Positions 4,436 to 62,493 of a stretch of 64,000 nt of DNA are shown one piece after another. Made by a program: the position numbers and the translations under genes. This DNA is from a virus. The stretch lies in the IMG/VR virus record IMGVR_UViG_3300044646_003076. One strand, 5' to 3'. Every line of letters starts with the position of its first letter. The stretch's first letter is position 1. A model generated the notes under the pieces. It was given only the letters and a program-made list of their open reading frames with translations. It was not told where the DNA came from and did not search any database.

Positions 4436-5898
4436 TGGCTGATGTAACAATTCAAAAGAAAAATGAGATTTACATAAAACTCATATGTGAACCATACGTT
4501 CTTTATGAAATGGCACAATACTTCACCTTTGATGTTCCTGGTGCGAAGTATTCACCTGCATACAAAAAGGGTGGTTGGGATGGTAAGATTTCACTTCTCT
4601 CAACGTCTACTGGTGAAATCTATTGTGGTCTTTTGGATAGAATTATCGCTAAGCTGAAGATTCATGGATTTTCTTATGAATTTAAAGACAATAAGCAATA
4701 CGGCTTACCCTTTGAGATCAATCCAGAAATAACACTAGAAGGTGTCACTGGATTCATGAATGTTCTTGGACCAAAAGCCAATCTTATTCCCGATGATTAT
4801 CAAATTAATGCAGTATATGAATGTCTAAAGTACAACAGAAAAACAATCGTATCACCCACATCTTCTGGTAAAACATTCCAGATTTTTGGATTGGTTCGCT
4901 ATTATATGATGAAGAATTATAAGATTCTTATTGTCTTTCCTCAAACAAGTCTTATTCGGCAAACCTATAAAGAATTTGAAGACTATGGATTAGATTCAGA
5001 ATCTACTTGTCATATGATCTATCAAGGACAATATAAAAAATCAGATAAGCAAGTACATCTTTCAACTTATCAATCCATTTATGATCTAGATAAATCTTTT
5101 TTCAACCAATATGATGTTGTTATTGTTGATGAGTGTCACAGAACAACATCAAAGAGTCTTATTGGTATTATGAAGAAATGTCCTGACGTGAAGTATCGTT
5201 TTGGATTTACTGGAACTCTTAGTAACAACGATGATTCAAAAGCTCCTAACGAATTAACAATTTCTGGACTTTTTGGACCTTCTTATAGAACCACCAATAC
5301 CAAAGAACTCATTGAAAAAGGAAGAGTTTCACAATTAGATATTCGTTGTGTTGTTCTAAAGCACAAACCACAAAAGTTTGATCGTTATGAAGATGAAGTT
5401 CAATATCTTATTAGTAACGAAAAAAGAAACAATTTTATCTGCGATCTTTCTAGTAAACTCAACAACAACACTCTTGTTATATTCTCCAGAGTTGAGAGTC
5501 ATGGTCAACTGCTTTATGATATTCTAAAAGAAAATAAGAACAAAAAAATCTTCTTTATTCATGGTGGTGTTGAGGTTGAAGAGCGCGAAAGAGTTAGACA
5601 GATTTGTGAACAAGAAAATAATGCAATTATTATCGCATCTTATGGTGTCTTTAGTACCGGAATTAATATTAAGAATTTACACAACATCATATTGGCATCT
5701 TCTTCTAAAGGAAAAATTCGGATTCTTCAGACTATCGGTAGAGGATTAAGAAAACACAAGTCTAAAGATAGAGCAACTCTTTATGATATCGCTGATGATT
5801 GTGGAAAAAATTACACTCTTAATCATTTCTTAGAAAGAATCAAAATTTATAATGAAGAAGAATTTGATTATGACATTAAGACCATAGAACTCAAGTAA
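4435..5898 (+). CDS. uvsW: UvsW SF2 DNA helicase
   Basis: GWDGKI, SPTSSGKT (Walker A), VDECH (DExH), GFTGTL, QTIGRGLR. Confidence 0.96.
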   Translation: MADVTIQKKNEIYIKLICEPYVLYEMAQYFTFDVPGAKYSPAYKKGGWDGKISLLSTSTGEIYCGLLDRIIAKLKIHGFSYEFKDNKQYGLPFEINPEITLEGVTGFMNVLGPKANLIPDDYQINAVYECLKYNRKTIVSPTSSGKTFQIFGLVRYYMMKNYKILIVFPQTSLIRQTYKEFEDYGLDSESTCHMIYQGQYKKSDKQVHLSTYQSIYDLDKSFFNQYDVVIVDECHRTTSKSLIGIMKKCPDVKYRFGFTGTLSNNDDSKAPNELTISGLFGPSYRTTNTKELIEKGRVSQLDIRCVVLKHKPQKFDRYEDEVQYLISNEKRNNFICDLSSKLNNNTLVIFSRVESHGQLLYDILKENKNKKIFFIHGGVEVEERERVRQICEQENNAIIIASYGVFSTGINIKNLHNIILASSSKGKIRILQTIGRGLRKHKSKDRATLYDIADDCGKNYTLNHFLERIKIYNEEEFDYDIKTIELK

Positions 5899-6203
5899 TC
5901 TTTAATCTTAATATACTTTTTGATGTAGTGTGGAGTGTTTGGATTATATGCTACACTGCGACGAACAAGACAATGATCATCGGATGCTAGATGTTCTAGA
6001 ACTTTTGGTGGTGTGTTTGGATTATATGCTACACTGCGACGAACAAGACAATGATCATCGGATGCTAGATGTTCTAGAAATTTTGGTGGTGTGTTTGGAT
6101 TTAGTGCTACCCTATAACGAACCAACCAATCCTCATCGGTCGCTAGTTGTTCTAGAGTTTTTGGTGAAGTGTTTGGATTACTGGCTTGTTCAAGTTTGTT
6201 CAT
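5868..6203 (-). CDS. LRV/HEAT-like repeat protein (3 repeats), locus A
   Basis: 26-aa NPNTPPKxLExLAxDxxxxVRxxVAx repeats. Repeats 2 and 3 are a near-exact 78-bp duplication (about 5935-6090). The 3' end overlaps the uvsW 3' end. Confidence 0.85.
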   Translation of the reverse strand: MNKLEQASNPNTSPKTLEQLATDEDWLVRYRVALNPNTPPKFLEHLASDDHCLVRRSVAYNPNTPPKVLEHLASDDHCLVRRSVAYNPNTPHYIKKYIKIKDYLSSMVLMS

Positions 6204-6205
6204 AA

Positions 6206-6361
6206 TCAATTCTCATCTTTTGTATAAACTTGTTCACATTCACCTCTCCTCTTACATACAATAATAACTCTAGTTGTTGAAAATAATTCAAGATTTTTAT
6301 TCAGACAAGATAAATTTTTACCAGAATTACAAATCATAATCGTTGTTATGAAATCAAGCAT
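6206..6361 (-). CDS. Small hypothetical protein (51 aa, not in ORF track)
   Basis: ATG at 6361 to TGA at 6206, MLDFITTIMICNSGK...EQVYTKDEN. Fills the gap in the minus-strand operon. Confidence 0.5.
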   Translation of the reverse strand: MLDFITTIMICNSGKNLSCLNKNLELFSTTRVIIVCKRRGECEQVYTKDEN

Positions 6362-6408
6362 TTAAGGTTCCTAATATAATTGCGTTGTTTATTATTATGA
6401 AAGAATTG

Positions 6409-6975
6409 TTATGTTTTATCTAACTTAGCTAGTTGTTCTTGAATTTTAATATACTTTTTGATGTAGTGTGGTGTGTTTGGATTTTGTGCTACTCCACAAC
6501 GAACATCAGAATTCTTATTGGTCGCTAGTTGTTCTAGTGCTTTTGGTGGTGTGTTTGGATTACATGCTACCCAATAACGAATAGAATAATCATCATCAGT
6601 CGCTAGTTGTTCTAGGGCTTTTGGTGGTGTGTTTGGGTTTTGTGCTAACGCCACACAAATATAATACCTATCATTGGTCACAAAACTCTTTATTGTCGTT
6701 GGTTGGGTATCTGAAATTTTTAATGCTTGCCAACAAATTTTCCAGCCCTCATCTGCCATTAGAAGTTCTAATGTTTCAGGTGAAGTGTTTGGATTTCTTG
6801 CTACTCCACAACGAACCCAATACTCTTCATCAGTAGCTAGACGCTCTAGCTCTTCTCGTGGTGTGTTTGGATTACATGCTACCCAATAACGAATAGAATA
6901 ATCATCATCAGTCGCTAGTTTTTCTAGAGTTTTTGGTGAAGTGTTTGGATTACTGGCTTGTTCAAGTTTGTTCAT
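6409..6975 (-). CDS. LRV/HEAT-like repeat protein (6 repeats), locus A
   Basis: MNKLEQAS N-cap, 26-aa repeats, NPNTPHYIKKYIKIQEQL C-cap. Confidence 0.88.
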   Translation of the reverse strand: MNKLEQASNPNTSPKTLEKLATDDDYSIRYWVACNPNTPREELERLATDEEYWVRCGVARNPNTSPETLELLMADEGWKICWQALKISDTQPTTIKSFVTNDRYYICVALAQNPNTPPKALEQLATDDDYSIRYWVACNPNTPPKALEQLATNKNSDVRCGVAQNPNTPHYIKKYIKIQEQLAKLDKT

Positions 6976-7451
6976 AATCTAGCTAATTGGTCTTGAATTT
7001 TAAGATACTTTTTGATGTAGTGTGGTGTGTTTGGATTTCTTGCTACACATTCACGAACCTCAGAACTCTTATCGGTCGCTAGGAGTTCTAGTGTTTTTGG
7101 ATGTGTATTTGGATTTCGTGCTACCCGATAATAAACATAAAAACATTCATCGGTCGCTAAAAGTTCTAGAGTTTCTGGTGGTGTGTTTTGATTATATGCT
7201 ACATTATAACGAACACCAGAATTCTCATCGGTTGCCAGTTGTTCTAGGATTTCTAGTGGAGTGTTTAGATTTTCTGCTACAACAATACGGACACGATAAT
7301 CCTCATCGGTTGCTAGTTGTACTAAAATTTTTTGTGGTGTGTTTGGGTTATGTGCTACACAACAACGAACACCAGATTCCTCATCGGTTGCCAGAATTTC
7401 TATTACATTTGGTGGTGTATTTGGATCTCTAGCTTGTTCAAGTTTGTTCAT
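6972..7451 (-). CDS. LRV/HEAT-like repeat protein (5 repeats), locus A
   Basis: Same caps and repeat consensus. ATGA stop/start overlap with neighbours. Confidence 0.88.
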   Translation of the reverse strand: MNKLEQARDPNTPPNVIEILATDEESGVRCCVAHNPNTPQKILVQLATDEDYRVRIVVAENLNTPLEILEQLATDENSGVRYNVAYNQNTPPETLELLATDECFYVYYRVARNPNTHPKTLELLATDKSSEVRECVARNPNTPHYIKKYLKIQDQLARL

Positions 7452-7798
7452 AACGTCGCCAGATGTTCTTGAATTTTAATATACTTTTTGATGTAGTGTG
7501 GTGTGTTTGGATTTAGTGCTACCCTATAACGAACAACAGAATTCTCATCGGTCGCTAGTTGTTCTAGGGCTTTTGGTGGTGTGTTTGGATGTATTGCTAC
7601 ACAATAACGAACACTAGAATCCTCATCGGTCGCTAGTTGTTCTAGGGCTTTTGGTGGTGTGTTTGGATTATGTGCTACCAAATAACGAACATTAGGATCC
7701 CCATTGGTGACTAAAAGTTCTAATAGTTTCGCCTGAGTATTTTGATTCCATATAGTATTTGGATCCAAAATAAAGTCAATAAAATTCACATTAGACAT
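7448..7798 (-). CDS. LRV/HEAT-like repeat protein (3 repeats), locus A
   Basis: Divergent N-terminus, then NPNTPPKALEQLATDE repeats and the conserved C-cap. Confidence 0.87.
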   Translation of the reverse strand: MSNVNFIDFILDPNTIWNQNTQAKLLELLVTNGDPNVRYLVAHNPNTPPKALEQLATDEDSSVRYCVAIHPNTPPKALEQLATDENSVVRYRVALNPNTPHYIKKYIKIQEHLATL

Positions 7799-8009
7799 AA
7801 TAAATTTTTCTCTTTGGTTGTTCTTTTCTTTTTACAATAAACTTATTAGCAGAATCAAAGGAATCAAAACATATTTCAACAGGAAAAACTTCTGCTTTGA
7901 TAAAAGGCATCCAAAAAAGAAGTAACTTTCGCTGTTGTGGATAAAATTTAATGTTTCCGTTTAAATCAGTTTTTTCAACAATACGGTAGATCATTTTAGT
8001 AATTAACAA
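7791..8009 (-). CDS. Hypothetical protein
   Basis: Phage-type small ORF (YRIVEKTDLNG...FYPQQRKLLLFW) coupled to neighbours. Confidence 0.65.
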   Translation of the reverse strand: MLITKMIYRIVEKTDLNGNIKFYPQQRKLLLFWMPFIKAEVFPVEICFDSFDSANKFIVKRKEQPKRKIYYV

Positions 8010-8620
8010 AAAGAAGTAATAACAACATTAACGTGAGAAGTAGTTCTTTTAATTTTATTGATGATTTTCTTCCACCAAGATTGACGATATCTTGAAATCA
8101 TTTGGCTAAAATAACCACCTTGCGAGGTACTAATGATAACAAGATATTCTGTTGTTGGTAATATAGTCTCTAGAAGTTTCTGTGAAATCGTATCATCTTC
8201 ATCTACAATAACAACATCAAACCTATTATAACGATAACTATTGATTGATGAACAATTAAAAACGTTAACATTTTTAGATTTAATGAAAGGTTTAATGTCA
8301 TTTAATCTGGAATAGTTTGAGAAAAATACACCAACTTTCTTGTTACATAGTAAACCTAGATAATTGGCTAGATTAATAGTGAAGAAGGTTTTTCCAGATC
8401 GTCTAAATGTAGCAATTAATGTAATAGGACTTTTGAAACAAGAACGAAACCACTTTCTTTGATAACGTTTTAATCCTTTAGTCTCCACAAAAGAAGGATA
8501 GATTCTTGTTCCTTTAATGAAACAATTAAACTTTTCTAGTTCATTAGAGGGATTCTGAAACAACATGTTAGATGTTCTGACAGATTTTAATAACTTATTT
8601 AACGAGTTCTTGATATTCAA
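8003..8620 (-). CDS. Stand-alone terminase-like P-loop ATPase domain protein
   Basis: RRSGKT (Walker A with upstream Arg), DVVIVDE (Walker B), IISTS (coupling-motif-like). No nuclease domain. Confidence 0.65.
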   Translation of the reverse strand: MNIKNSLNKLLKSVRTSNMLFQNPSNELEKFNCFIKGTRIYPSFVETKGLKRYQRKWFRSCFKSPITLIATFRRSGKTFFTINLANYLGLLCNKKVGVFFSNYSRLNDIKPFIKSKNVNVFNCSSINSYRYNRFDVVIVDEDDTISQKLLETILPTTEYLVIISTSQGGYFSQMISRYRQSWWKKIINKIKRTTSHVNVVITSFC

Positions 8621-8868
8621 AACTTTTCTTCTCTTGTTAATGTTGATTGATGATTTAAATGTATTTGATAGTTTAATCGTCTATAACGCTTACTAAAAAC
8701 ATCTGGTAACCAATAAGTTTCTAGATATTCTACTTTTACATTTTGAAGAAAGAAATCTAGATCATGAAAAATACCTAATTGACAATAACCATCGTGAGTG
8801 ATAAAGTTATTGTCGTCAAGTCTATAGTAATAAAGCATTATTGTATTTGACGAACGATAGTGAGTCAA
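8617..8868 (-). CDS. Conserved cyanophage hypothetical protein
   Basis: YWLPDVFSKRYRR motif. Typical antisense position upstream of the gp55 block. Confidence 0.65.
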   Translation of the reverse strand: MTHYRSSNTIMLYYYRLDDNNFITHDGYCQLGIFHDLDFFLQNVKVEYLETYWLPDVFSKRYRRLNYQIHLNHQSTLTREEKF

Positions 8869-8915
8869 TTCCCGAAGGGAATGATTAAATAATATTAGAA
8901 GTGTTAAGAAATATA

Positions 8916-9296
8916 ATGCAAGAGGAATTTTATGCGGTTGTTAAGTTAGTAAGTGGTGAAGAAATTTTTGGTATAGTATCCCCAATGGAGGAACAGGGTG
9001 AACAGTATTTGATTCTTTTAGATCCCATTAGTATCACTAGAGAAGAGTTGAATAACGTTTACATTTACAGAATAGAACCATGGATGAAGCTAACACAAGA
9101 AACGATTTTCATCTTAGAAAAGTCAAAAATAATTACGGTAGTAGAATCATTTGACGATGAGCTAATAAAGCTTTACAAACGTTATTTGAACAAAAGTGAC
9201 TCTAGTGGAACCTATGTACTCAATAGATCTGAAGGATTCATCAATAACGTTAAACGAGCTAGAATGATACTAGAGAAGATCTACAGAATCAATTAA
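8916..9296 (+). CDS. Conserved Sm-like-fold hypothetical protein upstream of gp55
   Basis: EEFYAVVKLVSGEEIF...IEPWMKL. Preceded by late-promoter-like TTAAATA at 8885. Confidence 0.75.
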   Translation: MQEEFYAVVKLVSGEEIFGIVSPMEEQGEQYLILLDPISITREELNNVYIYRIEPWMKLTQETIFILEKSKIITVVESFDDELIKLYKRYLNKSDSSGTYVLNRSEGFINNVKRARMILEKIYRIN

Positions 9297-9393
9297 TTCC
9301 CTTCGGGAATCAGCTCCTTTCAGTCGCTGGTACTAACTTTAGTTAAATTTAATCTATTAAATTTTAATAGTTACTGGTGACGTAACTCCTGTG

Positions 9394-9422
9394 AGTCTAC
9401 TCACACTTTTTCCATTTGTCAA
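9394..9422 (-). promoter_or_regulatory. Leftward sigma70-type promoter
   Basis: Minus strand TTGACA-N17-TAGACT, pointing at the minus-strand operon 8868 to 5868. Confidence 0.7.
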
Positions 9423-9431
9423 GCTTTAATA

Positions 9432-9453
9432 TGCCACTTTGTTCACTGGCACA
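9432..9453. promoter_or_regulatory. Palindromic promoter box, copy 1
   Basis: TGCCA-N10-TGGCA(CA) between divergent promoters. Confidence 0.55.
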
Positions 9454-9475
9454 CTCTACCACCTTATAACCCCTC

Positions 9476-9504
9476 TTGACAAATCAGACATTATGTGTTA
9501 TAGT
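9476..9504 (+). promoter_or_regulatory. Sigma70-type promoter for gp55-47-46
   Basis: TTGACA-N17-TATAGT with extended TG. A late motif CTAAATA follows at 9511-9517. Confidence 0.85.
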
Positions 9505-9540
9505 GGTCTTCTAAATAGGCGACCGTGAGGAAAATATTGA

Positions 9541-11359: not shown

Positions 11360-11362
11360 ATT

Positions 11363-12535
11363 ATGAAAATTAATTTACTAAATGGTGATTCTTTATTAAT
11401 ACTTAAAGAATTTGATGATAATAGTATTGATTCCATTGTTTGCGATCCTCCATATGGATTGAGTTTTATGGGAAAAAAATGGGATTATGATGTTCCTTGT
11501 GTGGAGTTATGGGCAGAATGTCTACGAGTGTTGAAACCGGGTGGACATCTTTTGGCATTTGCTGGCACACGGACACAGCATAGAATGGCATGTAGAATTG
11601 AAGATGCTGGCTTTGAGATCCGGGATATGATTGCCTGGGTCTACGGGTCGGGGTTCCCGAAGTCGCTGGATGTGAGCAAGGCGATTGATAAAGCTGCGGG
11701 CGCGGAGCGGGAGGTGGTGGGGCAACAGCATCGCCCCGAAGGAAGGCAGTTTGCGGAGGGTGCCAGCGGCTTCGCGCGTGGGGCCGTTGACATCACCGCC
11801 CCCGCCACCCCCGAAGCCCAGCAGTGGTCCGGCTGGGGCACAGCTCTAAAACCAGCACTTGAACCAATTACTATGGCTCGTAAACCATTAGAAGGAACTG
11901 TTGCTTCTAATGTGCTGGAGCACGGCACCGGGGCGCTGAATGTGGATGGGTGCAGAGTGGCACATAATGAGGATTGTCGGATCATGGCTCCAAGTCAATC
12001 CAACATTGACAATCCAAGTGAAAAACTTCGGCAGGGTGGTAGAAGAGAAGAAACCCTGGAACTGAAACCCTCCGGCCGCTGGCCCGCCAACCTGATCACG
12101 GATGGCAGTGACGAGGTGGTGGGGTTATTTCCAGATAGGAAAACAACATGGGTTTCCCCCAAACATAAAAATAATCGTAGTGGTGAATTTCTTGGAGAAT
12201 TAAAACATCCTGGAGCACAGGGTTTCAATGACTCAGGTTCGGCTGCCCGTTTCTTTTATTGTGCTAAAACAAGCAAGAAAGAACGTGGTAACGGAAATAA
12301 CCATCCAACAGTTAAACCTATTGCGCTCATGCGCTATCTTTGTCGTCTAGTCACACCTCCTGGTGGCACAGTTCTTGATCCATTTATGGGCAGCGGTTCT
12401 ACAGGAATCGCGGCACTTCAAGAAAATTTTAATTTTATTGGTATAGAGTTGGATGAAAATTATTATAATATAGCAAAAGATCGCATAGACGTAGTTAAAA
12501 ATAAACCAACATTAGATGTATTATTTGACCTATGA
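11363..12535 (+). CDS. DNA amino-methyltransferase (N6-adenine/N4-cytosine, beta class)
   Basis: N-terminal DPPY, HPTVKP, and C-terminal VLDPFMGSGSTG. Confidence 0.93.
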   Translation: MKINLLNGDSLLILKEFDDNSIDSIVCDPPYGLSFMGKKWDYDVPCVELWAECLRVLKPGGHLLAFAGTRTQHRMACRIEDAGFEIRDMIAWVYGSGFPKSLDVSKAIDKAAGAEREVVGQQHRPEGRQFAEGASGFARGAVDITAPATPEAQQWSGWGTALKPALEPITMARKPLEGTVASNVLEHGTGALNVDGCRVAHNEDCRIMAPSQSNIDNPSEKLRQGGRREETLELKPSGRWPANLITDGSDEVVGLFPDRKTTWVSPKHKNNRSGEFLGELKHPGAQGFNDSGSAARFFYCAKTSKKERGNGNNHPTVKPIALMRYLCRLVTPPGGTVLDPFMGSGSTGIAALQENFNFIGIELDENYYNIAKDRIDVVKNKPTLDVLFDL

Positions 12536-15027: not shown

Positions 15028-15056
15028 TTGACAAATCGGAGATCTCGTGCTATAGT
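15028..15056 (+). promoter_or_regulatory. Sigma70-type promoter for the clamp/clamp-loader operon
   Basis: TTGACA-N17-TATAGT with TG. Followed by the TGCCTAG...CTAGGCA inverted repeat (15056-15088). Confidence 0.85.
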
Positions 15057-15110: not shown

Positions 15111-15407
15111 ATGAGTGAAAATCATTTTTGGAGATACAATGAAGATAAGATTATTCGTCAGTTAGAAGAATATCTTAAAGGAACGTATAATCAACACTAT
15201 GTTGATAGAGTTAATGGTGGACAAGAACAAACGCTTGATAAAATCAAATATAACCGAAGAGAAGGTTTTTGTGCCGGGAATGTAACAAAGTATATTGATC
15301 GTTACGACGCAAAAGGAACACCGAGAGCTGATCTCTTTAAAGTTTTGCATTATACGATGTTATTGATCAATCATCTAAATCTTATTGAAAATAATGGACA
15401 AAGTTAA
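15111..15407 (+). CDS. DUF3310-like conserved hypothetical protein
   Basis: YNQHY...GFCAGNVTKYIDRY..KG...DLFKVLHY. Usual gene upstream of gp45. Confidence 0.75.
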   Translation: MSENHFWRYNEDKIIRQLEEYLKGTYNQHYVDRVNGGQEQTLDKIKYNRREGFCAGNVTKYIDRYDAKGTPRADLFKVLHYTMLLINHLNLIENNGQS

Positions 15408-15858
15408 ATTAGCTAGAGATCCAAACACAACACCAGAAATCTTAGAACAATTAGCGACTGATGAGGATTATTGGGTTCGTTATCGTGTAGCATATAATCC
15501 AAACATACCAAAAAAAGTTCTAGAACAACTAGCGACCGAAAAGGATTCTAGTGTTCGTGAATGTGTAGCACTAAATCCAAACACAACACAAAAAGTTCTA
15601 GAACAACTGGCGACCGATGAGAATTATCTTGTTCGTGAATGTGTAGCATATAATCCAAACACACCACCAAAAGCACTAGAGCAATTAGCGACCGATGAGT
15701 ATTGGGATGTTCGTTATCGGGTGACACAAAATCCAAACACTCCGATTCATATATTGAAGATTCTCAGTAAAGATAGTGATCGTGAAACTAGAAATAGTGC
15801 ATTGAAAAACTTAAAACCCAAACAATTAGAACTTGATTTATCATTTAAATCTTATTAA
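15394..15858 (+). CDS. LRV/HEAT-like repeat protein (4 repeats plus a degenerate one), locus B
   Basis: 26-aa repeat consensus. ATG at 15394. Confidence 0.87.
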   Translation: MDKVKLARDPNTTPEILEQLATDEDYWVRYRVAYNPNIPKKVLEQLATEKDSSVRECVALNPNTTQKVLEQLATDENYLVRECVAYNPNTPPKALEQLATDEYWDVRYRVTQNPNTPIHILKILSKDSDRETRNSALKNLKPKQLELDLSFKSY

Positions 15859-15863
15859 GAATT

Positions 15864-16256
15864 ATGAACAAATTTGAACAAGCAAAAAATCCAAACACAC
15901 CACCAAATGTACTAAAAATTCTAGCGACCGATAAGAATTATTGGGTTCGTTGTTGTGTAGCACATAATCCAAATACTTCAACAAAAACACTTGAACAACT
16001 AGCGACCGATGAGGATTCTTATGTTCGTTGGAGTGTGGCACAAAATCCAAACACTCCAATAAAAACTCTGGAACTACTAGCAACCGATGATAAATGGTAT
16101 GTTCGTCGTGGTGTAGCACTAAACCGAAACACACCACCAGAAATTCTTGAACAACTAGCAACCGATGAAGAATGGGATGTTCGTTATGGAGTATCAATAA
16201 ATCCAAACACTCCGATTCATATATTGAAGAGTCTCACTCAAACAATTAGAACTTGA
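15864..16256 (+). CDS. LRV/HEAT-like repeat protein (4 repeats), locus B
   Basis: MNKFEQAK N-cap and 26-aa repeats. Confidence 0.87.
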   Translation: MNKFEQAKNPNTPPNVLKILATDKNYWVRCCVAHNPNTSTKTLEQLATDEDSYVRWSVAQNPNTPIKTLELLATDDKWYVRRGVALNRNTPPEILEQLATDEEWDVRYGVSINPNTPIHILKSLTQTIRT

Positions 16257-27415: not shown

Positions 27416-27422
27416 CTAAATA
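27416..27422 (+). promoter_or_regulatory. T4-like late promoter
   Basis: CTAAATA upstream of 27446. Confidence 0.65.
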
Positions 27423-53242: not shown

Positions 53243-53263
53243 AATTCTAGTTACCATTAAAAC

Positions 53264-54830: not shown

Positions 54831-54841
54831 AATTTAAACTA

Positions 54842-55078: not shown

Positions 55079-55082
55079 AATC

Positions 55083-55310: not shown

Positions 55311-55319
55311 TTTTTCATC

Positions 55320-57192: not shown

Positions 57193-57228
57193 TATCCATT
57201 TCTAACATCACCAATCCACTGAACTGTA

Positions 57229-57414: not shown

Positions 57415-57458
57415 ACCCACTAGCTTATTAACATTCACATTTATTCGGAGATTTTATT

Positions 57459-57611
57459 ATGAAAACATTAGGCATTGCACTCGCTATCAATCTCTCATCT
57501 GTTGCTGCCGTAGTTTGCGCTTTGTTAGCTGCAATTCATGGTGTAACGGGTTGGGGGTGGTTTTTATTCATTGCAGTGTTGGTTTCTAAGGATTATCGGA
57601 GTGAGGACTAA
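57459..57611 (+). CDS. Small membrane protein (50 aa, not in ORF track)
   Basis: MKTLGIALAINLSSVAAVVCALLAAIHGVTGWGWFLFIAVLV. GGAG upstream. Confidence 0.65.
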   Translation: MKTLGIALAINLSSVAAVVCALLAAIHGVTGWGWFLFIAVLVSKDYRSED

Positions 57612-57662
57612 AACTATTGCTTGTCATAACATCCATCATTTACCCAATCCATTAAAATTCTC

Positions 57663-57911
57663 ATGAAAAACAAACTCCCGAATATTGAAAATCTTTCACG
57701 CTTTGAATTAGTGCAATTAGATAGCGAAATCAAAAAAAACTTCTATCAGAAAAGAAGAAAGTTATTGAGTTTAGAGTTAGGATTGTGTCTAACACTGGTC
57801 GCTTCACTGATCACGATCTTAGTTTCGATAAAACTGCAGAATCACTTGTTGATACAATCACAGATTATTATGACCTTTACCCAGATGTATCTGTGGAGAT
57901 TTTTGATATAA
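57663..57911 (+). CDS. Hypothetical membrane protein
   Basis: Hydrophobic C-terminal half. Confidence 0.55.
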   Translation: MKNKLPNIENLSRFELVQLDSEIKKNFYQKRRKLLSLELGLCLTLVASLITILVSIKLQNHLLIQSQIIMTFTQMYLWRFLI

Positions 57912-57917
57912 AAGAAG

Positions 57918-57976
57918 TGGACGCACCATAAACTGTCACATCACCCAACCATCTTCAAGCCAGGAAACACTAAGAT
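57918..57976 (+). promoter_or_regulatory. Box promoter (copy 6)
   Basis: TGGACG-N10-TGTCACA, 30 nt, then TAAGAT. Confidence 0.55.
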
Positions 57977-58223
57977 GATAGAGTCCCAACGAGTTCTAAT
58001 GAAACACTTAACATATCTAGGAAGAGGAGTCATTTCTAGTCTTAACTTCCACAAAGCACCATACGGTGCCCTTACACTATTCATATGGAATATTTTCTGG
58101 TTGATTATTATTGATAGTATAAGCGATTATGAAGTATATGGAACAAAATTTGTAATAAGTTTAATGCTATTGATTTATCTCTTTCTATGTTATCTTAACG
58201 GTAAAGCTGAGCTAAAAGAGTGA
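57975..58223 (+). CDS. Hypothetical membrane protein
   Basis: Two hydrophobic segments. Confidence 0.55.
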   Translation: MIESQRVLMKHLTYLGRGVISSLNFHKAPYGALTLFIWNIFWLIIIDSISDYEVYGTKFVISLMLLIYLFLCYLNGKAELKE

Positions 58224-58230
58224 TCTTCAT

Positions 58231-58314
58231 CGGAGCATGGCGGAATTGGTAGACGCAACGCACTTAAAATGCGTAGGTCGTAAGACTGTGGGAGTTCAAG
58301 TCTCCCTGCTCCGA
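58231..58314 (+). tRNA. tRNA-Leu (anticodon TAA)
   Basis: Acceptor CGGAGCA/TGCTCCG, anticodon arm ACGCA-CTTAAAA-TGCGT, long variable arm, T arm GGGAG-TTCAAGT-CTCCC. CCA not encoded. Confidence 0.95.
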
Positions 58315-58322
58315 TCTTCCTT

Positions 58323-58329
58323 CTAAATA
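58323..58329 (+). promoter_or_regulatory. T4-like late promoter
   Basis: CTAAATA upstream of 58342. Confidence 0.55.
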
Positions 58330-58341
58330 ATCCATCAAATA

Positions 58342-58599
58342 ATGATGGATATTATGGAAGAACTAAGAATACTCTGCAAATGCTGTAACACCGAAATCGT
58401 AAAAACTGGTACTTGTGGATGTCCCAATATGGCATCAATTCGTAACGATAGAATTTCTGCAGTTGACATGACTCAGATTGTTTTATTAACACCAATCAAA
58501 TCTAAGACTTACAACAGCATCTTCTCTCCAACAGATCTGGCCGATCAAGAATCCAGAAGAAAGAGAAAAGTTCGTAAGCTAGAATTTGAAGTTCGCTAA
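58342..58599 (+). CDS. Conserved cyanophage zinc-binding hypothetical protein
   Basis: CKCC...CGCPNM...RRKRKVRKLEFEVR. Confidence 0.72.
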   Translation: MMDIMEELRILCKCCNTEIVKTGTCGCPNMASIRNDRISAVDMTQIVLLTPIKSKTYNSIFSPTDLADQESRRKRKVRKLEFEVR

Positions 58600-58616
58600 T
58601 CTCTTCACTCAAACTT

Positions 58617-58769
58617 ATGGACGACCGAATTAAACAAAACTGGCAAAAAATTAAAGAGGCATTAGAAGCCTCAGGTAAAACAGATTGCCTCTTTTATCGC
58701 AGAGCGGTTTCTATTGTTAACACTGGTCATGATCCGTTTGAATCCGTTTTAAATAAAAATGAACCCTGA
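58617..58769 (+). CDS. Small conserved cyanophage protein (50 aa, not in ORF track)
   Basis: NWQKIKEALEASGKTDCLFYRRA...DP. Confidence 0.68.
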   Translation: MDDRIKQNWQKIKEALEASGKTDCLFYRRAVSIVNTGHDPFESVLNKNEP

Positions 58770-58906
58770 AGAAATTGAAAAACCGATTGATAACAAGATT
58801 CGCCAACATGAGATCAGAGTTGGATGGATTAGTGGTGTTATTGGCGCATTATTTACTTTTGGGGGTAATTCATGCTATCTGGTTGATTAAACAATGGATT
58901 CTTTGA
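58759..58906 (+). pseudogene. Small membrane protein with an apparent +1 frameshift in a G5 run
   Basis: RQHEIRVGWISGVIGALFTFG then GNSC...stop at 58890. With one G fewer it continues VIHAIWLIKQWIL, completing the TM helix. Confidence 0.55.
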
Positions 58907-59313
58907 ATAATTCAGATATTATGGATATTTTTGATGATCCAAACACATCTCAAGAAACACTAAGAAAATTAGCGACTGATGAGAATTGGGAGGTTCGTTT
59001 GCGATTAGCAGGACATCCAAACACACCACCAGAAACTTTAGAACATCTAGCCGTAGATAAGTGTTACACTGTTCGTATGAATGTGGCACATAATCTAAGG
59101 ACATCAACAAAAACACTAAAATTATTGGCGGAGGATAAAGATTTTCGTGTTCGTTGGGCAGTAGCACTAAACCGAAACACACCAATAAAAACACTAGAAT
59201 TATTGGCGATGGATGAGGAGGCTGGTGTTCGTTATCGGGTAACAAATAACAAAATCTGCCCACATTATATCAAGAAGTTTCTTAAAATTCAAAAGCATCT
59301 GGCTAGATTATGA
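58894..59313 (+). CDS. LRV/HEAT-like repeat protein (4 repeats), locus C
   Basis: 26-aa repeats and C-cap PHYIKKFLKIQKHLARL. Confidence 0.87.
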   Translation: MDSLNNSDIMDIFDDPNTSQETLRKLATDENWEVRLRLAGHPNTPPETLEHLAVDKCYTVRMNVAHNLRTSTKTLKLLAEDKDFRVRWAVALNRNTPIKTLELLAMDEEAGVRYRVTNNKICPHYIKKFLKIQKHLARL

Positions 59314-59867
59314 GAAAAGTTAAACAAGCTAAAGATCCATACACTTCAACCGAAATTCTAGAACAACTAGCGACCGATGAGGATTCTAGTGTTCGTTGGA
59401 ATGTAGTACGTAATCCAAACACACCACCAGAAGCTCTAGAACAATTAGCGACTGACAAGAATCCTGGGGTTCGTTGGGAGGTAGCGAGAAATCCAAACAC
59501 ACCACCAGAAGCTCTAGAACAATTAGCGACTGACAAGAATCCTGGGGTTCGTTGGGCAGTAGCACTACATCCAAACACCCCACCAACAACATTAGAACTT
59601 CTAGCGACCGATGATGATGATTATGTTCGTCAGGGAGTAGCACTACATCCAAACACCCCACCAAAAGCACTAGAAATTCTAGCGACCGATATGGATTATC
59701 GTGTTCGTTGGCGGGTAGCAAGATTACCAAATATACAACCAAAATTATTAGAAATCTTAGCTACCGATGAGAATCCATATGTTCGTATATGGCTAGCACA
59801 AAATCCAAACACACCACGCTACATCAAAAAGTATCTTAAAATTCAAGAACAACTTCAAAAATTATGA
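59310..59867 (+). CDS. LRV/HEAT-like repeat protein (6 repeats), locus C
   Basis: 26-aa repeats. Repeats 2 and 3 are a near-exact 78-bp duplication. Confidence 0.88.
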   Translation: MRKVKQAKDPYTSTEILEQLATDEDSSVRWNVVRNPNTPPEALEQLATDKNPGVRWEVARNPNTPPEALEQLATDKNPGVRWAVALHPNTPPTTLELLATDDDDYVRQGVALHPNTPPKALEILATDMDYRVRWRVARLPNIQPKLLEILATDENPYVRIWLAQNPNTPRYIKKYLKIQEQLQKL

Positions 59868-59995
59868 CGACTTCCTTTGATGATAACGATCCACCACAGC
59901 TTAACTTTGATAAATTATACGAACGAATAAAACAACAAAGAATGGAAGAACTCTTTTCTGAGCCCTATGATGGTGATATGGAAGAAGAGGATTGA
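59864..59995 (+). CDS. Small acidic hypothetical protein (43 aa, not in ORF track)
   Basis: Starts in the TTATGA overlap. LYERIKQQRMEELFSEP. Confidence 0.58.
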   Translation: MTTSFDDNDPPQLNFDKLYERIKQQRMEELFSEPYDGDMEEED

Positions 59996-60003
59996 ATTTA
60001 TTC

Positions 60004-60076
60004 GCTCGTCTAGCCATCCGGTGAAGGCAACGAACTCATAATTCGTAGGAGGTGGGTTCGATCCCCACGACGAGCA
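60004..60076 (+). tRNA. tRNA with anticodon CAT (elongator Met or lysidine-modified Ile2)
   Basis: Acceptor GCTCGTC/GACGAGC, anticodon arm ACGAA-CTCATAA-TTCGT, T arm GTGGG-TTCGATC-CCCAC. Lacks initiator features. Confidence 0.92.
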
Positions 60077-60077
60077 T

Positions 60078-60138
60078 TGTGTGACAGTCAATAAACTGTA
60101 CACAAATATCAACACTCTCAAGTGTTGTATGCTACTAT
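60078..60138 (+). promoter_or_regulatory. Box promoter (copy 7)
   Basis: TTGTGTGACAGT-N6-ACTGTACACAA, 29 nt, then TG-C-TACTAT. Confidence 0.7.
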
Positions 60139-60195
60139 AAAAACGGTCAAAAGACCAATTGTTCCTTTATCTATTTTTTCTCATAATCGTTTAAA

Positions 60196-60423
60196 ATGAC
60201 AAGAAAACCGTTTGATGGCAAGTTCAGTAAGGATATTCATATTCTTACTCGTGCAACTAAAGGAGAAGTCTATCTCGGCGACTATCCCAAAATCATCAAA
60301 AAACTTAAACGTTATTTTACTGAGCAATATTCTGATATCCAATTCTATAATGAACCCGAATCCGATAATTTTTATTTATTGGATCTGATTCGGAATGAAC
60401 TAGAAATTGATGTAGTGGTGTGA
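60196..60423 (+). CDS. Conserved cyanophage hypothetical protein
   Basis: LGDYPKIIKKLKRYF...GIQF-like segment. Confidence 0.68.
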   Translation: MTRKPFDGKFSKDIHILTRATKGEVYLGDYPKIIKKLKRYFTEQYSDIQFYNEPESDNFYLLDLIRNELEIDVVV

Positions 60424-60426
60424 ATT

Positions 60427-60858
60427 ATGGATACCAATCTTTTTTGGAATCTGAGAGGTAATTATTCAGAACGTAAAGAAAAACTTTCTAAGATGTCTCG
60501 TGAGTATTTGGAAGCCTCTGTCTTAGATTCATGTTATAATAACTTCATCACCAATATAGAGGAAAATAATACTACTGGCGTAAAGAGAATTCCTTATATT
60601 GGATGGTATTGGCGCCATGTAACATTTAGCGATTTTACCAATATCCGTATTGGAGATTGTGGTCAATTTGTTGGATTTATGGAGAGCAATAAGTGGGATC
60701 ATCCAGAAAGATATCTTACCGAAGATGAGGGGTGTAGTATTATTGCATTTATTGATAATGCAATGAGAATTCAAGAGGGAGCTAGTTCCGAGACAACTCT
60801 TGATATCGTTCTTCAAAATCTATGGGATTATATGCAAACTTTGAAAATTGAAAGATGA
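60427..60858 (+). CDS. Hypothetical protein
   Basis: Co-oriented ORF. Confidence 0.62.
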   Translation: MDTNLFWNLRGNYSERKEKLSKMSREYLEASVLDSCYNNFITNIEENNTTGVKRIPYIGWYWRHVTFSDFTNIRIGDCGQFVGFMESNKWDHPERYLTEDEGCSIIAFIDNAMRIQEGASSETTLDIVLQNLWDYMQTLKIER

Positions 60859-61219
60859 CTAATCTATTTGTAGGTGAATCCGATTTCCGAGAATGGTTGG
60901 AAGCTAATAATTTTTGGATTTATTCCTCATATAAAGATGATCCATGGAATGAATGTAATTGGTATGCGTGTCGGCGGGTTGCCCCGGAAAGCCGAAGATG
61001 TGATTGTAATGATGAAAACCCGGATTACAATTGGTAATCAGGCCATATCATTCCACCTATTTTACTAATTCTAGAACTGCTACATTTGAAATTATCGGGA
61101 AAACAAAAGGAATTTGGTATAATCTAACAGCTTATTCTATCAATATTGATGATGTTCCTGAAAAAATAGACGAAGTTTCAGAATCACTTGCTCGCGCCTG
61201 GGAGGCTCTTGTTCTATGA
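60855..61219 (+). pseudogene. Hypothetical protein split by a -1 frameshift in an A4 run (or a sequencing error)
   Basis: ...RRCDCNDE in frame 1, then KPGLQLVIRPYH...WYNLTAYS...LARAWEAL in the other frame. One extra A at 61015-61018 joins them. Confidence 0.62.
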
Positions 61220-61359
61220 TACCAGAATTAATGATTCTTGGATTCCTATTGATTATTGCTTCTTTTTCTGGTAACGGAAGTAGTTCAATATCTTTTGAAA
61301 ATAAAAATAAGCCAAAAGGGCCACCACTAAAATTTAAAAAAATCACAAAGGAAAAATAA
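61216..61359 (+). CDS. Small membrane-anchored basic protein (47 aa, not in ORF track)
   Basis: MIPELMILGFLLIIASF...KPKGPPLKFKK. Coupled on both sides. Confidence 0.55.
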   Translation: MIPELMILGFLLIIASFSGNGSSSISFENKNKPKGPPLKFKKITKEK

Positions 61360-61647
61360 ATGAGTAACACATTACATGTCTATGCACAGTCAGCACCACA
61401 TGACAGTGTTTTTATCTGTGGAACTAAAGAATCACTAGAAAAACTAAGAGAAACATTAGATAATATTCTTACTGAAGATCTTAAGTTTGGTGCTTATGAT
61501 GAGTTTACTAATGATGGCGAGGGATATAACGTACATATTGATTTGTTATCTGAAGAGAAAATGGAGCAGATGGCCGTTCCCTATAGTGATGAGATTTTCT
61601 GGAATAATGAATCCAATAAAACAAAAGTGTATCCTTGGTATCTTTGA
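61360..61647 (+). CDS. Hypothetical protein
   Basis: HDSVFICGTKESLEKL...NDGEGY..HI...PY. Confidence 0.65.
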   Translation: MSNTLHVYAQSAPHDSVFICGTKESLEKLRETLDNILTEDLKFGAYDEFTNDGEGYNVHIDLLSEEKMEQMAVPYSDEIFWNNESNKTKVYPWYL

Positions 61648-61681
61648 ATAATAATCACCAACAAATAATGAATTTTGTATT

Positions 61682-61939
61682 ATGGATTACGGATTAACGC
61701 CATATTGTTTATCAAGAAATCCAAACACACCACCAAAAGCCCTAGAACAACTAGCGACCGATGAGTGGGGTCCTATTCGTTGTTGGGTAGCACTAAACCC
61801 AAACACTCCACCAACAACATTAAAACAACTAGCAACCGATGAGGAATGGTATGTTCGTTGGGGTGTAGCACGAAATCCAAATACTCCACGCTATCTCAAG
61901 AAGTATCTTAAAATTCAAGAACATTTGGTGAGATTATGA
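61682..61939 (+). CDS. LRV/HEAT-like repeat protein (2 repeats), locus D
   Basis: Lacks the N-cap. Repeats and C-cap intact. Confidence 0.82.
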   Translation: MDYGLTPYCLSRNPNTPPKALEQLATDEWGPIRCWVALNPNTPPTTLKQLATDEEWYVRWGVARNPNTPRYLKKYLKIQEHLVRL

Positions 61940-62493
61940 ACAAATTTGAACAAGCTAGAGATCCAAATACACCACAAGAAGAGTTAGAGCGTCTAGCTAC
62001 TGATGATGAGTATCTGGTTCGTTGTGGTGTAGCACGAAATCCATCCACACCAACAAAAGCCCTAGAACAACTAGCGACTGATAAGTGTGGTAATGCTCGT
62101 GAAGGAGTAGCAGATAATCCAAACACTCCACCAGAAATCCTAGAACAATTAGCGACCGATGAGGATTATTGGGTTCGTTGGAGAGTAGCACATAATCCAA
62201 ACACACCACCAAAAGCCCTAGAACAACTAGCGACCGATGAGGATTCTAGTGTTCGTTATTGGGTAGCAGAAAATCCAAACACACCACCAAAAGCTCTAGA
62301 ACAACTAGAGACCGATGAGAATTCTGATGTTCGTTGGAGTGTAGCAGATAATCCAAACACACCACCAAAAGCTCTAGAACAACTAGCGACCGATGAGAAT
62401 TCTGATGTTCGTTGGAGTGTAGCAGATAATCCAAACACTCCACGCTATCTCAAAAAGTATCTTAAAATTCAAGAACATCTAGCTAAATTATGA
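61936..62493 (+). CDS. LRV/HEAT-like repeat protein (6 repeats), locus D
   Basis: Repeats 5 and 6 are a near-exact 78-bp duplication. Confidence 0.88.
   Translation: MNKFEQARDPNTPQEELERLATDDEYLVRCGVARNPSTPTKALEQLATDKCGNAREGVADNPNTPPEILEQLATDEDYWVRWRVAHNPNTPPKALEQLATDEDSSVRYWVAENPNTPPKALEQLETDENSDVRWSVADNPNTPPKALEQLATDENSDVRWSVADNPNTPRYLKKYLKIQEHLAKL

Follow-up and report, generated by a model that had tools for sequence, protein, structure and literature searches.

A multigene family of LRV-type repeat proteins with a fixed scaffold and a variable helix face in an uncultured T4-like phage

The window analysed here is a 64,000-nucleotide stretch of DNA from an uncultured, T4-like phage, and it carries ten LRV-repeat ORFs, all intact, at four loci (A to D). 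A preliminary description had reported ten ORFs with about 43 repeat copies, and its coordinates, the intactness of the genes and the unit count are all confirmed. The repeat family is real: a position-weight scan finds 43 units of 26 amino acids (two of them degenerate), and all ten ORFs match the Pfam profile LRV (PF01816) at 53-147 bits, where the cut-off is 21.6 bits. The 'ten-gene family' of that description holds for the window, but the family itself is larger. The whole 179.5-kb phage record contains 24 LRV genes with 102 units, which make up about 5.9% of the DNA. The reading frame is open in all 24, and the products of this family of at least 24 members range from 72 to 233 amino acids.

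Locus A comprises four genes on the minus strand. The first, g01 (5868-6209; 113 aa, three units; PF01816 74 bits), has the N-cap MNKLEQA after a TTG/ATG start and a C-cap variant, ...YIKKYIKIKDYL. It is followed by g02 (6409-6975; 188 aa, five units; 121 bits), in which a degenerate stretch of some 52 aa lies between units 2 and 4 and is matched at 100% in the related phage L003. Next come g03 (6972-7451; 159 aa, five units; 115 bits), joined by ATGA overlaps to both g02 and g04, and g04 (7448-7798; 116 aa, three units; 53 bits), which has an N-terminus of its own, MSNVNFIDF. The remaining loci lie on the plus strand. At locus B, g05 (five units; 82 bits) starts either at a TTG at 15385 (15385-15858, 157 aa) or at an ATG at 15394 (154 aa) and has an alternative type of C-cap, NPNTPIHILKILSKD..., while g06 (15864-16256; 130 aa, four units; 92 bits) ends in a short alternative C-cap. 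Locus C consists of g07 (58894-59313; 139 aa, four units; 73 bits), with more diverged units and a C-cap containing KICPHYIKKFLKIQKHL, and, across an ATGA overlap, g08 (59310-59867; 185 aa, six units; 131 bits, and 54 bits to HEAT_2). At locus D, g09 (61682-61939; 85 aa, two units plus C-cap; 57 bits) precedes g10 (61936-62493; 185 aa, six units; 147 bits), which overlaps g09 on one side and the following ORF (62490-62810) on the other, each time by ATGA. The C-cap NPNTP[H/R]Y[I/L]KKY, described earlier as present in most of these genes, occurs in eight of the ten. The N-cap MNK[L/F]EQA, described as shared, is exact in only five; the other N-termini are related or different.

The expression signals first proposed stand only in part. 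Sigma70-type promoters had been placed at loci A and B, and the one at B is real: a near-consensus element (15028-15056, plus strand; TTGACA, 17 nt, TG-n-TATAGT; 11 of 12 matches) precedes a DUF3310 gene (15111-15407) and then g05 and g06. Of the promoters assigned to loci C and D, the late-type motif before C holds (CTAAATAA, 58323-58330, plus strand). It is of the CTAAATA type, also present just upstream of many plus-strand ORFs at 27-41 kb, and three small ORFs separate it from g07, which lies 564 nt downstream. No recognisable promoter was found at loci A and D, nor within 1.5 kb of most of the 24 LRV genes. Early/middle expression would thus apply at best to locus B, since the motif ahead of locus C is of the late type and a promoter is not recognisable for most of the genes.

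An AlphaFold2 model of g10 (pLDDT 97.7, pTM 0.90) is a two-helix solenoid in which helices of 7 and 9 residues alternate. Each 26-aa unit has a short helix A at positions 6-12 and a helix B at positions 18-26, and the stacked units place their B helices next to one another in the model. The only solved structure with sequence similarity is 1LRV (E 3e-9), which is also the best Foldseek match of the model (E 1e-6); alphaRep binders (TM 0.70-0.76) and the HEAT repeats of PP2A-A match as well. Profile, model and structural matches therefore agree with the LRV/HEAT-type alpha-solenoid originally suggested.

Per-position entropy bears out the proposed division into a fixed scaffold and variable positions. 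Entropy is at most 0.45 bit at unit positions 9, 12, 13, 15, 20, 21 and 24, and 2.6-3.4 bits at positions 17, 18, 19, 22, 23 and 26. The five x positions of the preliminary description (18, 19, 22, 23 and 26) do vary, but the variable set is wider, as it includes position 17 and also positions 8 and 16 (2.0-2.2 bits). Along helix B the five correspond to i, i+1, i+4, i+5 and i+8, which places them within a 140-degree arc if each residue turns the helix by 100 degrees. The conserved V20 and V24 lie opposite, and the five are predicted to occupy one face of the helix, as had been claimed. Their numbering is that of the alphaRep libraries, which randomise positions 18, 19, 22, 23, 26 and 30 and whose crystal complexes bind via them (PMC3754942). 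This single contiguous face is predicted from helix periodicity, the DSSP string and the alphaRep analogy. Proline is accepted at position 18 and not accepted at 22-26, and position 23 often holds a small residue; natural alphaRep-like repeats have the same pattern.

The scaffold is fixed at the level of codons as well as residues. R21 is encoded by CGT in 93 of 94 units (18% of Arg codons genome-wide), A13 by GCG in 74% (12% genome-wide), N3 by AAC in 89% (20%), V24 by GTA in 93% (24%), and L9 and L12 by CTA in 75-78% (15%). Fixation at codons rare in the genome implies that the units are of recent common ancestry or have been homogenised. The variable positions behave differently. Among 25 independent close unit pairs, changed codons at variable positions are non-synonymous in 60 cases and synonymous in 3, versus 42 and 30 in the scaffold. 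For close paralogous units dN(variable)/dS(all) comes to 1.8 (CI 1.2-2.6); orthologous units from different phages give 1.67 (1.1-2.5), and unit pairs picked by scaffold distance give 5.0 (3.7-7.0). The non-synonymous excess looked for at these positions is therefore present. Scaffold dN/dS is 0.30-0.52, and pN at variable positions (0.42-0.67) is near saturation. Inside the variable codons alone dN/dS is 1.2-1.9, a value based on few synonymous sites. In scaffold-matched pairs synonymous divergence is itself higher in variable (0.23) than in scaffold codons (0.07), and the contrast therefore partly reflects exchange of older cassettes plus scaffold homogenisation rather than positively selected point mutation.

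The residues at the five x positions are strongly biased. Relative to the phage proteome, Trp is enriched 15-fold, Cys 9.7-fold, Tyr 4.1-fold and Arg 2.1-fold, while Lys, Thr, Ala, Val and Ile are depleted 4-17-fold; Trp, Cys and Tyr together account for 41% of residues, compared with 10% expected from base composition (p 5e-73).

Related phages confirm that the arrays differ between strains. In relatives with 93-96% identical flanks, caps and scaffold are kept, and variable residues, unit number and gene number differ. Flanking genes have 95-99% protein identity (pN 0.002-0.025), whereas LRV genes are 55-86% identical (pN 0.09-0.29), and whole-unit indels and one gene replacement separate the phages. 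For example, the g04 orthologue in L003 has five units instead of three, the g05 orthologue there keeps its caps with different variable residues, and the position of g06 in L003/L004 is occupied by a different, 274-aa LRV gene. The repeat shuffling proposed earlier is visible within the genome too: exact stretches of 77-108 nt are common to paralogues 60-107 kb apart, against a background divergence of a median 20 differences per 78 nt. One such stretch (108 nt) links g03 to a paralogue about 66 kb away, and one unit of g04 is pieced together from stretches that recur unchanged in g10 and in a paralogue at a distance of about 107 kb. Read from the sequence, these shared stretches indicate recombination at the level of units. 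Where the preliminary description had named observations that would count against it and that could be tested, the results point the other way: the variable positions share a predicted face, non-synonymous change is in excess and the arrays are not identical across strains.

A frozen framework with a fast-changing helix face rich in Trp, Tyr and Cys makes the family resemble a natural protein-binder library. Our best explanation, which we hold with moderate confidence, is a family of variable-face binders in which each paralogue has its own host target and which diversifies by substitution and recombination. The family comprises at least 24 small, cytoplasmic, capped alpha-solenoids of LRV type. 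Scaffold DNA stays near-identical across them, and the positions of the variable face, where Trp, Tyr, Cys, Arg and Ser are strongly favoured, change no more slowly than silent sites do. New variants come about through point substitution, through recombination or gene conversion that joins paralogues at breakpoints within units, and when whole units or genes are gained or lost. The variable face would be the binding surface, and each paralogue would bind a different macromolecular target, most likely a protein made by the host cell that differs from one host strain to another; factors of host defence or host takeover are candidates. The conserved basic C-terminal helix may be only a cap or may be a common handle. 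A parallel for recognition is the trypsin-NACHT protein P0233, whose C-terminal repeat region is an LRV array. On the other hand, the 9% share of Cys on the variable face is unusual for a protein-binding surface and counts against binding. Overall, the earlier interpretation is partly supported. LRV is a known fold family, we infer the binder role of the phage set, and the function first suggested, as inhibitors of host defence or regulators, is putative.

The C-terminal helix bears on a second, rather unlikely reading, in which the variable face picks a substrate and the helix docks all paralogues on one phage or host machine (e.g. a protease, a modifying enzyme or the virion). Poxvirus ankyrin-repeat proteins, with their constant C-terminal F-box-like motif, offer a parallel. 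Of the 24 paralogues, 20 carry the cap NPNTP[H/R]Y[I/L]KKY[I/L]KIQE[H/Q]L, which also occurs in relatives from other samples and has a pN/pS of 0.23 at cap positions 6-18. Its Y7, K9, K10, K13, I14 and L18 are invariant despite synonymous codon variation (TAC/TAT 12:8, AAA/AAG 16:4, four Leu codons in use), and the amphipathic helix pattern suggests that the three invariant lysines are solvent-exposed. However, much of this conservation is explained simply by the need for a C-cap to cover the hydrophobic core of the final unit. Moreover, four paralogues have other caps, the docking partner is hypothetical, ClpS was not found in the 179.5-kb record and the LRV genes have no capsid-targeting leader.

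It is improbable that the arrays are decoys or mimics captured from a host with long LRV proteins and NLR-like LRV sensors, competing for the ligands of host sensors or poisoning sensor assemblies. Long LRV proteins (31-55% identity) are common in filamentous cyanobacteria (Calothrix, Nostoc, Rivularia, Tolypothrix, Scytonema), one relative runs from a trypsin-like protease through NACHT to LRV repeats, and the phage core genes are nearest to cyanomyoviruses. Yet psbA was not found in the 83% of the phage genome covered, the face fraction of Trp, Tyr, Cys and Phe is 0.42 in phage repeats versus 0.10 in the long chromosomal ones, and the nearest relatives of similar length are on phage-like contigs, not bacterial genomes.

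We also give little credence to a selfish, expanding repeat without specific binding, in which folding constrains the buried scaffold and the exposed positions simply drift. The same positions are variable in every LRV family examined, so the fixed scaffold and variable face are as such a generic LRV property; repeats duplicate and recombine easily, and dN/dS within variable codons is only modestly above 1. But in a genome with a G+C content of 35%, drift should favour Lys, Ile, Asn and Phe; what is seen instead is the roughly 10- to 15-fold excess of Cys and Trp and the depletion reported above. Caps and scaffold are under purifying selection, all 24 ORFs are intact, and the family is kept on at least 13 viral contigs from about ten samples. 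What is special to the phage family is its frozen scaffold DNA, its aromatic and Cys bias and its expansion in a phage.

It is very unlikely that the units each read one base of a nucleic acid through their variable residues, as in TALE, PUF or PPR proteins. The variable residues fall at helix i, i+1 and i+4, as in PUF repeats, the face is rich in stacking (Tyr, Trp, Arg) and edge-reading (Ser, Asn, Glu, Cys, Gln) residues, and the HEAT-like AlkC/AlkD proteins bind DNA. Against this, 91 distinct residue combinations among 98 units leave no room for a small code, most paralogues are acidic to neutral (pI 4.5-6.7), a conserved acidic run borders the face (D15, then mostly Glu/Asp at 16 and 17), and acidic and basic residues at the x positions are balanced (48 versus 50). 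Finally, it is highly doubtful that translationally coupled pairs hetero-oligomerise, their faces co-evolving for a partner and not for host targets: ATGA overlaps join eight LRV-LRV junctions, each with an odd upstream N-terminus and MNK[L/F]EQA or a variant downstream, and alphaRep proteins can pair via their variable faces, but several paralogues have no neighbouring LRV gene and relatives have replaced the partner gene or changed gene number.

Among known systems, the Azotobacter vinelandii LRV protein (1LRV) and the Pfam families LRV (PF01816) and LRV_2 (PF25591) belong by profile to the same repeat family, and 1LRV and the phage units have the signature L..L..D....VR..VA. in common. The phage units have 26 aa with an NPNTP turn, compared with 24 aa in 1LRV (two-residue alignment gaps). 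Unlike 1LRV, the phage proteins lack an Fe-S domain and are small, capped and stand-alone members of a multigene family. AlphaRep binders (3LTJ, 3LTM, 4JW2, 4XL5, 7Q1F) are artificial proteins derived from thermostable HEAT-like repeats (PMC3754942). Like the phage model, they are two-helix solenoids (TM 0.70-0.76) with variable positions 18, 19, 22, 23 and 26 beside a conserved VR, which form the binding face in alphaRep complexes; Pro only at 18, small residues at 23, N- and C-caps and a variable repeat number are further likenesses. In contrast, alphaRep units are man-made, have 31 aa and exclude Cys by design, and no similarity to the phage set is detectable by sequence. The phage set is a natural library carried in a genome, with abundant Trp, Tyr and Cys, and its binding is predicted.

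The variable proteins of diversity-generating retroelements (DGRs; e.g. Mtd of Bordetella phage) are likewise phage-encoded, with a fixed scaffold and few hypervariable exposed positions, and both systems are thought to serve adaptation to changing partners. Unlike a DGR, the phage set has no template/variable repeat pair, and no reverse transcriptase was found in the 179.5-kb record. Trp (TGG) is among the commonest residues of its face, and adenine mutagenesis of AAY codons cannot yield TGG. The folds also differ (solenoid versus C-type lectin), and the phage LRV family stores its diversity in many paralogues and moves it by recombination. Poxvirus ankyrin/PRANC proteins and the ankyrin and other repeat expansions of giant viruses form families of many strain-variable paralogues thought to bind host factors, with a constant terminal motif and a variable repeat surface, as in the phage set. 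Repeat type and host domain are different there, and docking via the C-terminal helix is hypothetical in the phage.

The LRVs of Bacteroidota-type mobile elements and the long LRVs of filamentous cyanobacteria belong to the same Pfam family and vary at the same positions. Multigene LRV arrays also occur in viral records of 110-145 kb and on a 196-kb contig of a Prevotella MAG with parA/parB-like genes. These Bacteroidota-type and cyanobacterial proteins are 200-1900 aa long, with NKNTP/NENTP turns, their own caps and more diverse scaffolds, and their faces are less rich in aromatic residues and Cys (fractions of 0.21 and 0.10, respectively, versus 0.42 in the phage).

The window corresponds to positions 42,962-106,961 of a 179.5-kb IMG/VR record, estimated to be 83% complete, from an uncultured T4-like phage. 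T4-like core genes in the window include a UvsW-type helicase, gp47/gp46, gp45 and gp44. The gp46 sequence matches Synechococcus phages B3 and B23 best (53% identity), the cyanophage marker psbA was not found in the 179.5-kb record, and no close DNA relative was found among 50,697 deposited phages. Open reading frame calls recovered all ten genes of the preliminary description, all of them open, at locus A (5868-7798, minus strand, four genes), locus B (15385/15394-16256, plus strand, two genes), locus C (58894-59867, plus strand, two genes) and locus D (61682-62493, plus strand, two genes). Their identity as LRV proteins was borne out, as all ten match PF01816 at 53-147 bits (E 2e-14 to 2e-44; gathering score 21.6 bits). 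Weaker, overlapping Pfam matches are to LRV_2, HEAT and HEAT_2 (PF13646; gathering score 27.7 bits); five of the ten exceed the HEAT_2 score at 29.6-54 bits and five fall below it. In addition, the unit is 26 amino acids long, compared with 31 in HEAT-like or alphaRep-type repeats. A position-weight scan found 43 such units in the ten window genes. The family exists as described, but its size had been underestimated because the same scan of the whole record gives 24 LRV genes and 102 units (75 unit matches with PF01816), amounting to 3,543 codons or 5.9% of the record's DNA.

At the N-termini, 8-27 residues precede the first unit, and no Fe-S domain occurs among the Pfam matches of the ten genes, in contrast to the Azotobacter vinelandii LRV protein (1LRV), which has an N-terminal 4Fe-4S cluster domain. 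Pfam also revealed no extra domain in paralogues with other termini, or in relatives labelled 'CopG/RHH' or 'AlkC' by JGI, labels that look like artefacts of automatic annotation. The LRV proteins have no match in PHROGs, or weak ones to phrog_20647 (function not assigned), and no meaningful match to PADLOC profiles. Long open frames run antisense to several LRV genes (5930-6205 and 7022-7432, plus strand; 15862-16206, 58919-59263 and 59386-59742, minus strand). They are repeat-like in periodicity and are most simply by-products of repeat composition rather than genes.

Within the unit, the register reads N1-P-N-T-P5 ... L9 ... L12-A13 ... D15 ... V20-R21 ... V24-A25. The fixed scaffold and the variable positions claimed earlier separate clearly by entropy, which does not exceed 0.45 bit at positions 9, 12, 13, 15, 20, 21 and 24 and 2.0-3.4 bits at positions 8, 16-19, 22, 23 and 26. 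One degenerate segment interrupts the repeat pattern (...MADEGWKICWQALKISDTQP...YYICVALAQ, residues ~61-112 of the gene at 6409-6975, minus strand); it is 100% conserved in the closely related phage contig L003, unlike the variable residues of the units on either side.

In an AlphaFold2 model of the 185-residue paralogue at 61936-62493 (pLDDT 97.7, pTM 0.90), each unit contributes a helix of 7 residues at positions 6-12 and a helix B of 9 residues at positions 18-26, and a 15-residue helix closes the C-terminus. The only solved structure alike in sequence, 1LRV, is also the top Foldseek match (E 1.2e-6, TM 0.65/0.53). Foldseek then places engineered alphaRep binders at TM 0.70-0.76, followed by the HEAT repeats of PP2A-A; alphaRep chains were not detected by phmmer sequence search. 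Positions 18, 19, 22, 23 and 26 are i, i+1, i+4, i+5 and i+8 of helix B and, by helix register and DSSP, lie on one face of it in the model, with the conserved V20 and V24 facing the other way, on the packing side. AlphaRep libraries randomise positions 18, 19, 22, 23, 26 and 30, crystal complexes bind via these residues, and the libraries have positional biases, namely proline at 18 and small residues at 23 (PMC3754942). The likeness extends beyond the same-numbered variable positions to these biases: phage units admit proline at 18 but at none of 22-26, and small residues recur at 23. Together, register, DSSP and the alphaRep analogy suggest that the variable positions would form one contiguous face along the solenoid.

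The composition of this face is highly skewed. Relative to the phage proteome, the five positions are enriched 15-fold in Trp, 9.7-fold in Cys, 4.1-fold in Tyr and 2.1-fold in Arg, and depleted 4-17-fold in Lys, Thr, Ala, Val and Ile. Trp, Cys and Tyr make up 41% of residues against the 10% expected from base composition (p 5e-73), and the composition is not neutral drift. The face shares its alphabet of Trp, Tyr, Ser and Arg with antibody paratopes and interface hot spots. Every LRV set that we examined varies at the same positions, so the pattern of variability is generic, and the aromatic and cysteine content (W+Y+C+F) of the face ranges from 0.42 in this phage through 0.37 in related phage contigs, 0.31 in short metagenomic relatives and 0.21 in Bacteroidota-type element arrays to 0.10 in long, largely cyanobacterial proteins. 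Cysteine accounts for 9% of face positions overall, and VRCCVA or VRCGVA is found in the first unit after the N-cap in six of the twelve genes with an MNK-type N-cap (e.g. 6972-7451 and 15864-16256). The excess of cysteine could possibly reflect metal binding or redox chemistry.

At the DNA level, the scaffold is conserved in codons that are rare in the genome. CGT encodes Arg21 in 93 of 94 units (against 18% of Arg codons genome-wide), Val24 is GTA in 93% (24%), Asn3 is AAC in 89% (20%), Leu9 and Leu12 are CTA in 75-78% (15%) and Ala13 is GCG in 74% (12%). The sameness of the scaffold is therefore due to identity by descent or homogenisation, not to codon bias. By contrast, the face changes quickly, with pN of 0.42-0.67 per site at variable positions. 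Across 25 independent pairs of closest units, 60 of the changed codons at the seven variable positions are non-synonymous and 3 synonymous, compared with 42 and 30 at the 19 scaffold positions. With the Nei-Gojobori method, the ratio of variable dN to overall dS is 1.8 for close paralogous units (bootstrap 1.2-2.6), 5.0 (3.7-7.0) for pairs picked by scaffold distance alone and 1.67 (1.1-2.5) for twelve orthologous units between phages, while scaffold dN/dS is 0.30-0.52. The excess of non-synonymous change predicted for the face is thus present. Inside the variable codons only, where synonymous sites are few, the ratio is 1.2-1.9. Synonymous divergence too is greater in variable than in scaffold codons, so that part of the contrast stems from exchange of older cassettes together with scaffold homogenisation.

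Comparison with close relatives shows the same pattern between phages. Apart from the LRV loci, two viral contigs (L003 and L004; gp45 95% identical) are collinear with the window and share 93-96% nucleotide identity with it. Their backbone genes have 95-99% protein identity (pN 0.002-0.025), compared with 55-86% (pN 0.09-0.29) for the LRV genes, whose orthologues keep caps and scaffold and change the variable positions. Unit number also differs, one orthologue having five units rather than three and another lacking one; at locus A three genes correspond to four in the window, and at locus B the second gene is replaced by a different, 274-residue LRV gene. That is, arrays differ across related phages in variable residues, unit number and gene number. 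On a 125-kb contig of another phage, 20 kb contain seven or more LRV genes, one of which is the orthologue, with changed face residues, of a paralogue with a conserved 46-residue N-terminal extension. In IMG/VR, close relatives occur on 13 or more contigs, drawn from about ten samples, and each of five searched viral records holds at least 23-44 LRV units. On two phage-like contigs (L001, 125 kb, and L002, 255 kb), LRV genes lie amid NAD-salvage-type genes (NAMPT, NUDIX/NMNAT-like, NADAR), HNH endonucleases, ClpS, a tRNA synthetase and tandem DUF8296 genes, which are accessory regions typical of large phages.

Several observations bear on how this diversity arises. The median pair of units differs at 20 of 78 nt, and genes 60-107 kb apart have exact stretches of 77-108 nt in common. 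In one unit of the gene at 7448-7798 (minus strand), the left part exactly matches a unit in the gene at 61936-62493 and the right part one in a gene 107 kb away; breakpoints therefore fall inside units. Tandem near-identical units and whole-unit indels between strains were also seen and, together with the shared stretches, they support the repeat shuffling proposed previously. The alternative, a diversity-generating retroelement, would combine a reverse transcriptase with a template repeat and adenine-specific changes. TAT, TGG, TGT and TCT dominate the variable codons, and no RVT_1 match was found in the 179.5-kb record, an estimated 83% of the genome; the lack of a reverse transcriptase in the record and the prominence of TGG argue against this mechanism.

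Other readings of the family fare less well. A modular nucleic-acid reader of the TALE/PUF/PPR type would use a limited repertoire of specificity residues over and over, on a basic binding surface; here, the residue combination is unique in 91 of 98 units and most paralogues have a pI of 4.5-6.7. Head-packaged internal proteins of T4 carry an N-terminal capsid-targeting sequence of the MKTYQEFIAE type, and the LRV proteins begin with MNK[L/F]EQA or unrelated residues.

The constant parts are under constraint of their own. The C-cap NPNTP[H/R]Y[I/L]KKY[I/L]KIQE[H/Q]L ends 20 of the 24 paralogues, with pN/pS of 0.23, and its Tyr7, Lys9, Lys10, Lys13, Ile14 and Leu18 are invariant although their codons vary synonymously. 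ATGA overlaps occur at eight LRV-LRV gene junctions, always with MNK[L/F]EQA or a variant at the start of the downstream gene. Judged from sequence, the cap and the overlaps would allow an adaptor or pairing function. ClpS, considered as a partner of the C-terminal helix, is absent from the phage's own record. At 62490-62810 (plus strand), a 106-residue ORF overlaps the stop of the last locus D gene by ATGA; it has no Pfam match, and its Cys-rich motifs CSECDGSG and CDCCWGSG are reminiscent of DnaJ-type zinc fingers.

The timing of expression is less clear than had been proposed. A near-consensus sigma70-type promoter (15028-15056) precedes locus B, the only locus with one, in agreement with early or middle expression, while a CTAAATA motif, probably a late promoter, lies 564 nt upstream of locus C; neither motif occurs within 1.5 kb of the other loci or of most paralogues elsewhere. 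With the promoter at locus B alone and CTAAATA before locus C, an early/middle assignment for the family is not established. Plus-strand sites of CTAAATA are at 27416, 29667, 31103, 38426, 40529, 52282 and 58323; the motif precedes many plus-strand ORFs at 27-41 kb of the window and often stands 10-35 nt upstream of ORF starts. The window has fewer copies than expected of the wider pattern HTAAATAH (33 found, 68 expected), and a search for 10-4-10 dyads matching at 9 or more of 10 positions gave 23 unrelated palindromes with no recurring motif. Elsewhere in the window, an N6/N4 DNA methyltransferase gene (11363-12535, plus strand; PF01555, 125 bits) of up to 59% G+C in a 35% G+C genome lies between gp47 and gp46, and looks like a recent insertion because it is missing from the otherwise collinear L003 and L004. 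The small-gene region downstream of locus D contains a fucosyltransferase-like gene of glycosyltransferase family 11 (63065-63862, plus strand; PF01531, 95 bits).

Beyond this lineage, the LRV superfamily comprises 19,727 cluster representatives at E <=1e-3. The phage family described here has almost no counterparts in PHROGs or in cultured phages, where tblastn with one LRV protein gave a single match (Moorella phage MTATph1, 31% identity). A single-protein scan of bacterial genomes found three LRV loci only, on two contigs, at least one of them mobile-element-like. A second, independent expansion (L031-L034, in records G003-G005, and L009/L010) is present in viral records of 110-145 kb that are rated complete and on a Prevotella MAG contig of 196 kb, where the array adjoins genes resembling parA and parB by sequence. 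Its genes encode 200-600 residues with NKNTP or NENTP turns, the N-cap MSKENILSKISKMS... and the C-cap ...ALKERKEKSKTSIER. Long relatives are frequent in filamentous cyanobacteria; one joins a trypsin-like domain, NACHT and LRV repeats in that order, and others carry a WGR domain. Our literature search found no paper on LRV proteins in phages, nor any that describes small intracellular repeat proteins forming a large, dispersed family with a single fast-evolving face.

The phage family is a new member of the LRV fold family in an unusual genomic role. The reading as a set of binder-like solenoids that diversify through substitution and shuffling has good support; what they target, a counter-defence role and when they are expressed are matters that we infer. 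If the proteins are binders, each paralogue would point to a host protein important in infection, and, for an uncultured host, the family would offer ready-made probes of defence or takeover targets. For the fold family, with its nearly 20,000 cluster representatives, a tractable phage case could also lead to an assigned function. A more specific scheme, which we regard as rather unlikely in its entirety, is a germline-encoded, recombining binder repertoire that works without a reverse transcriptase, in which the paralogues would serve as small solenoid 'antibodies', each directed at a different target in host immunity or takeover, and the constant C-terminal helix would couple all of them to one common effector. 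If true, LRV expansions in other phage lineages and Bacteroidota elements would mark a widespread, unrecognised counter-defence strategy, as well as a natural source of binder scaffolds.

Known systems offer several comparisons. In phages, receptor-binding proteins are diversified by retroelements. In the scheme just outlined, variable cassettes would instead swap between two dozen loci, akin to antigenic-variation systems. The C-terminal repeat region is the sensor in NLR-like proteins, and the LRV array of the trypsin-NACHT relative occupies this very region. Finally, if the phage proteins do act as binders, their natural design would match that of the engineered alphaRep libraries, even in which positions vary.
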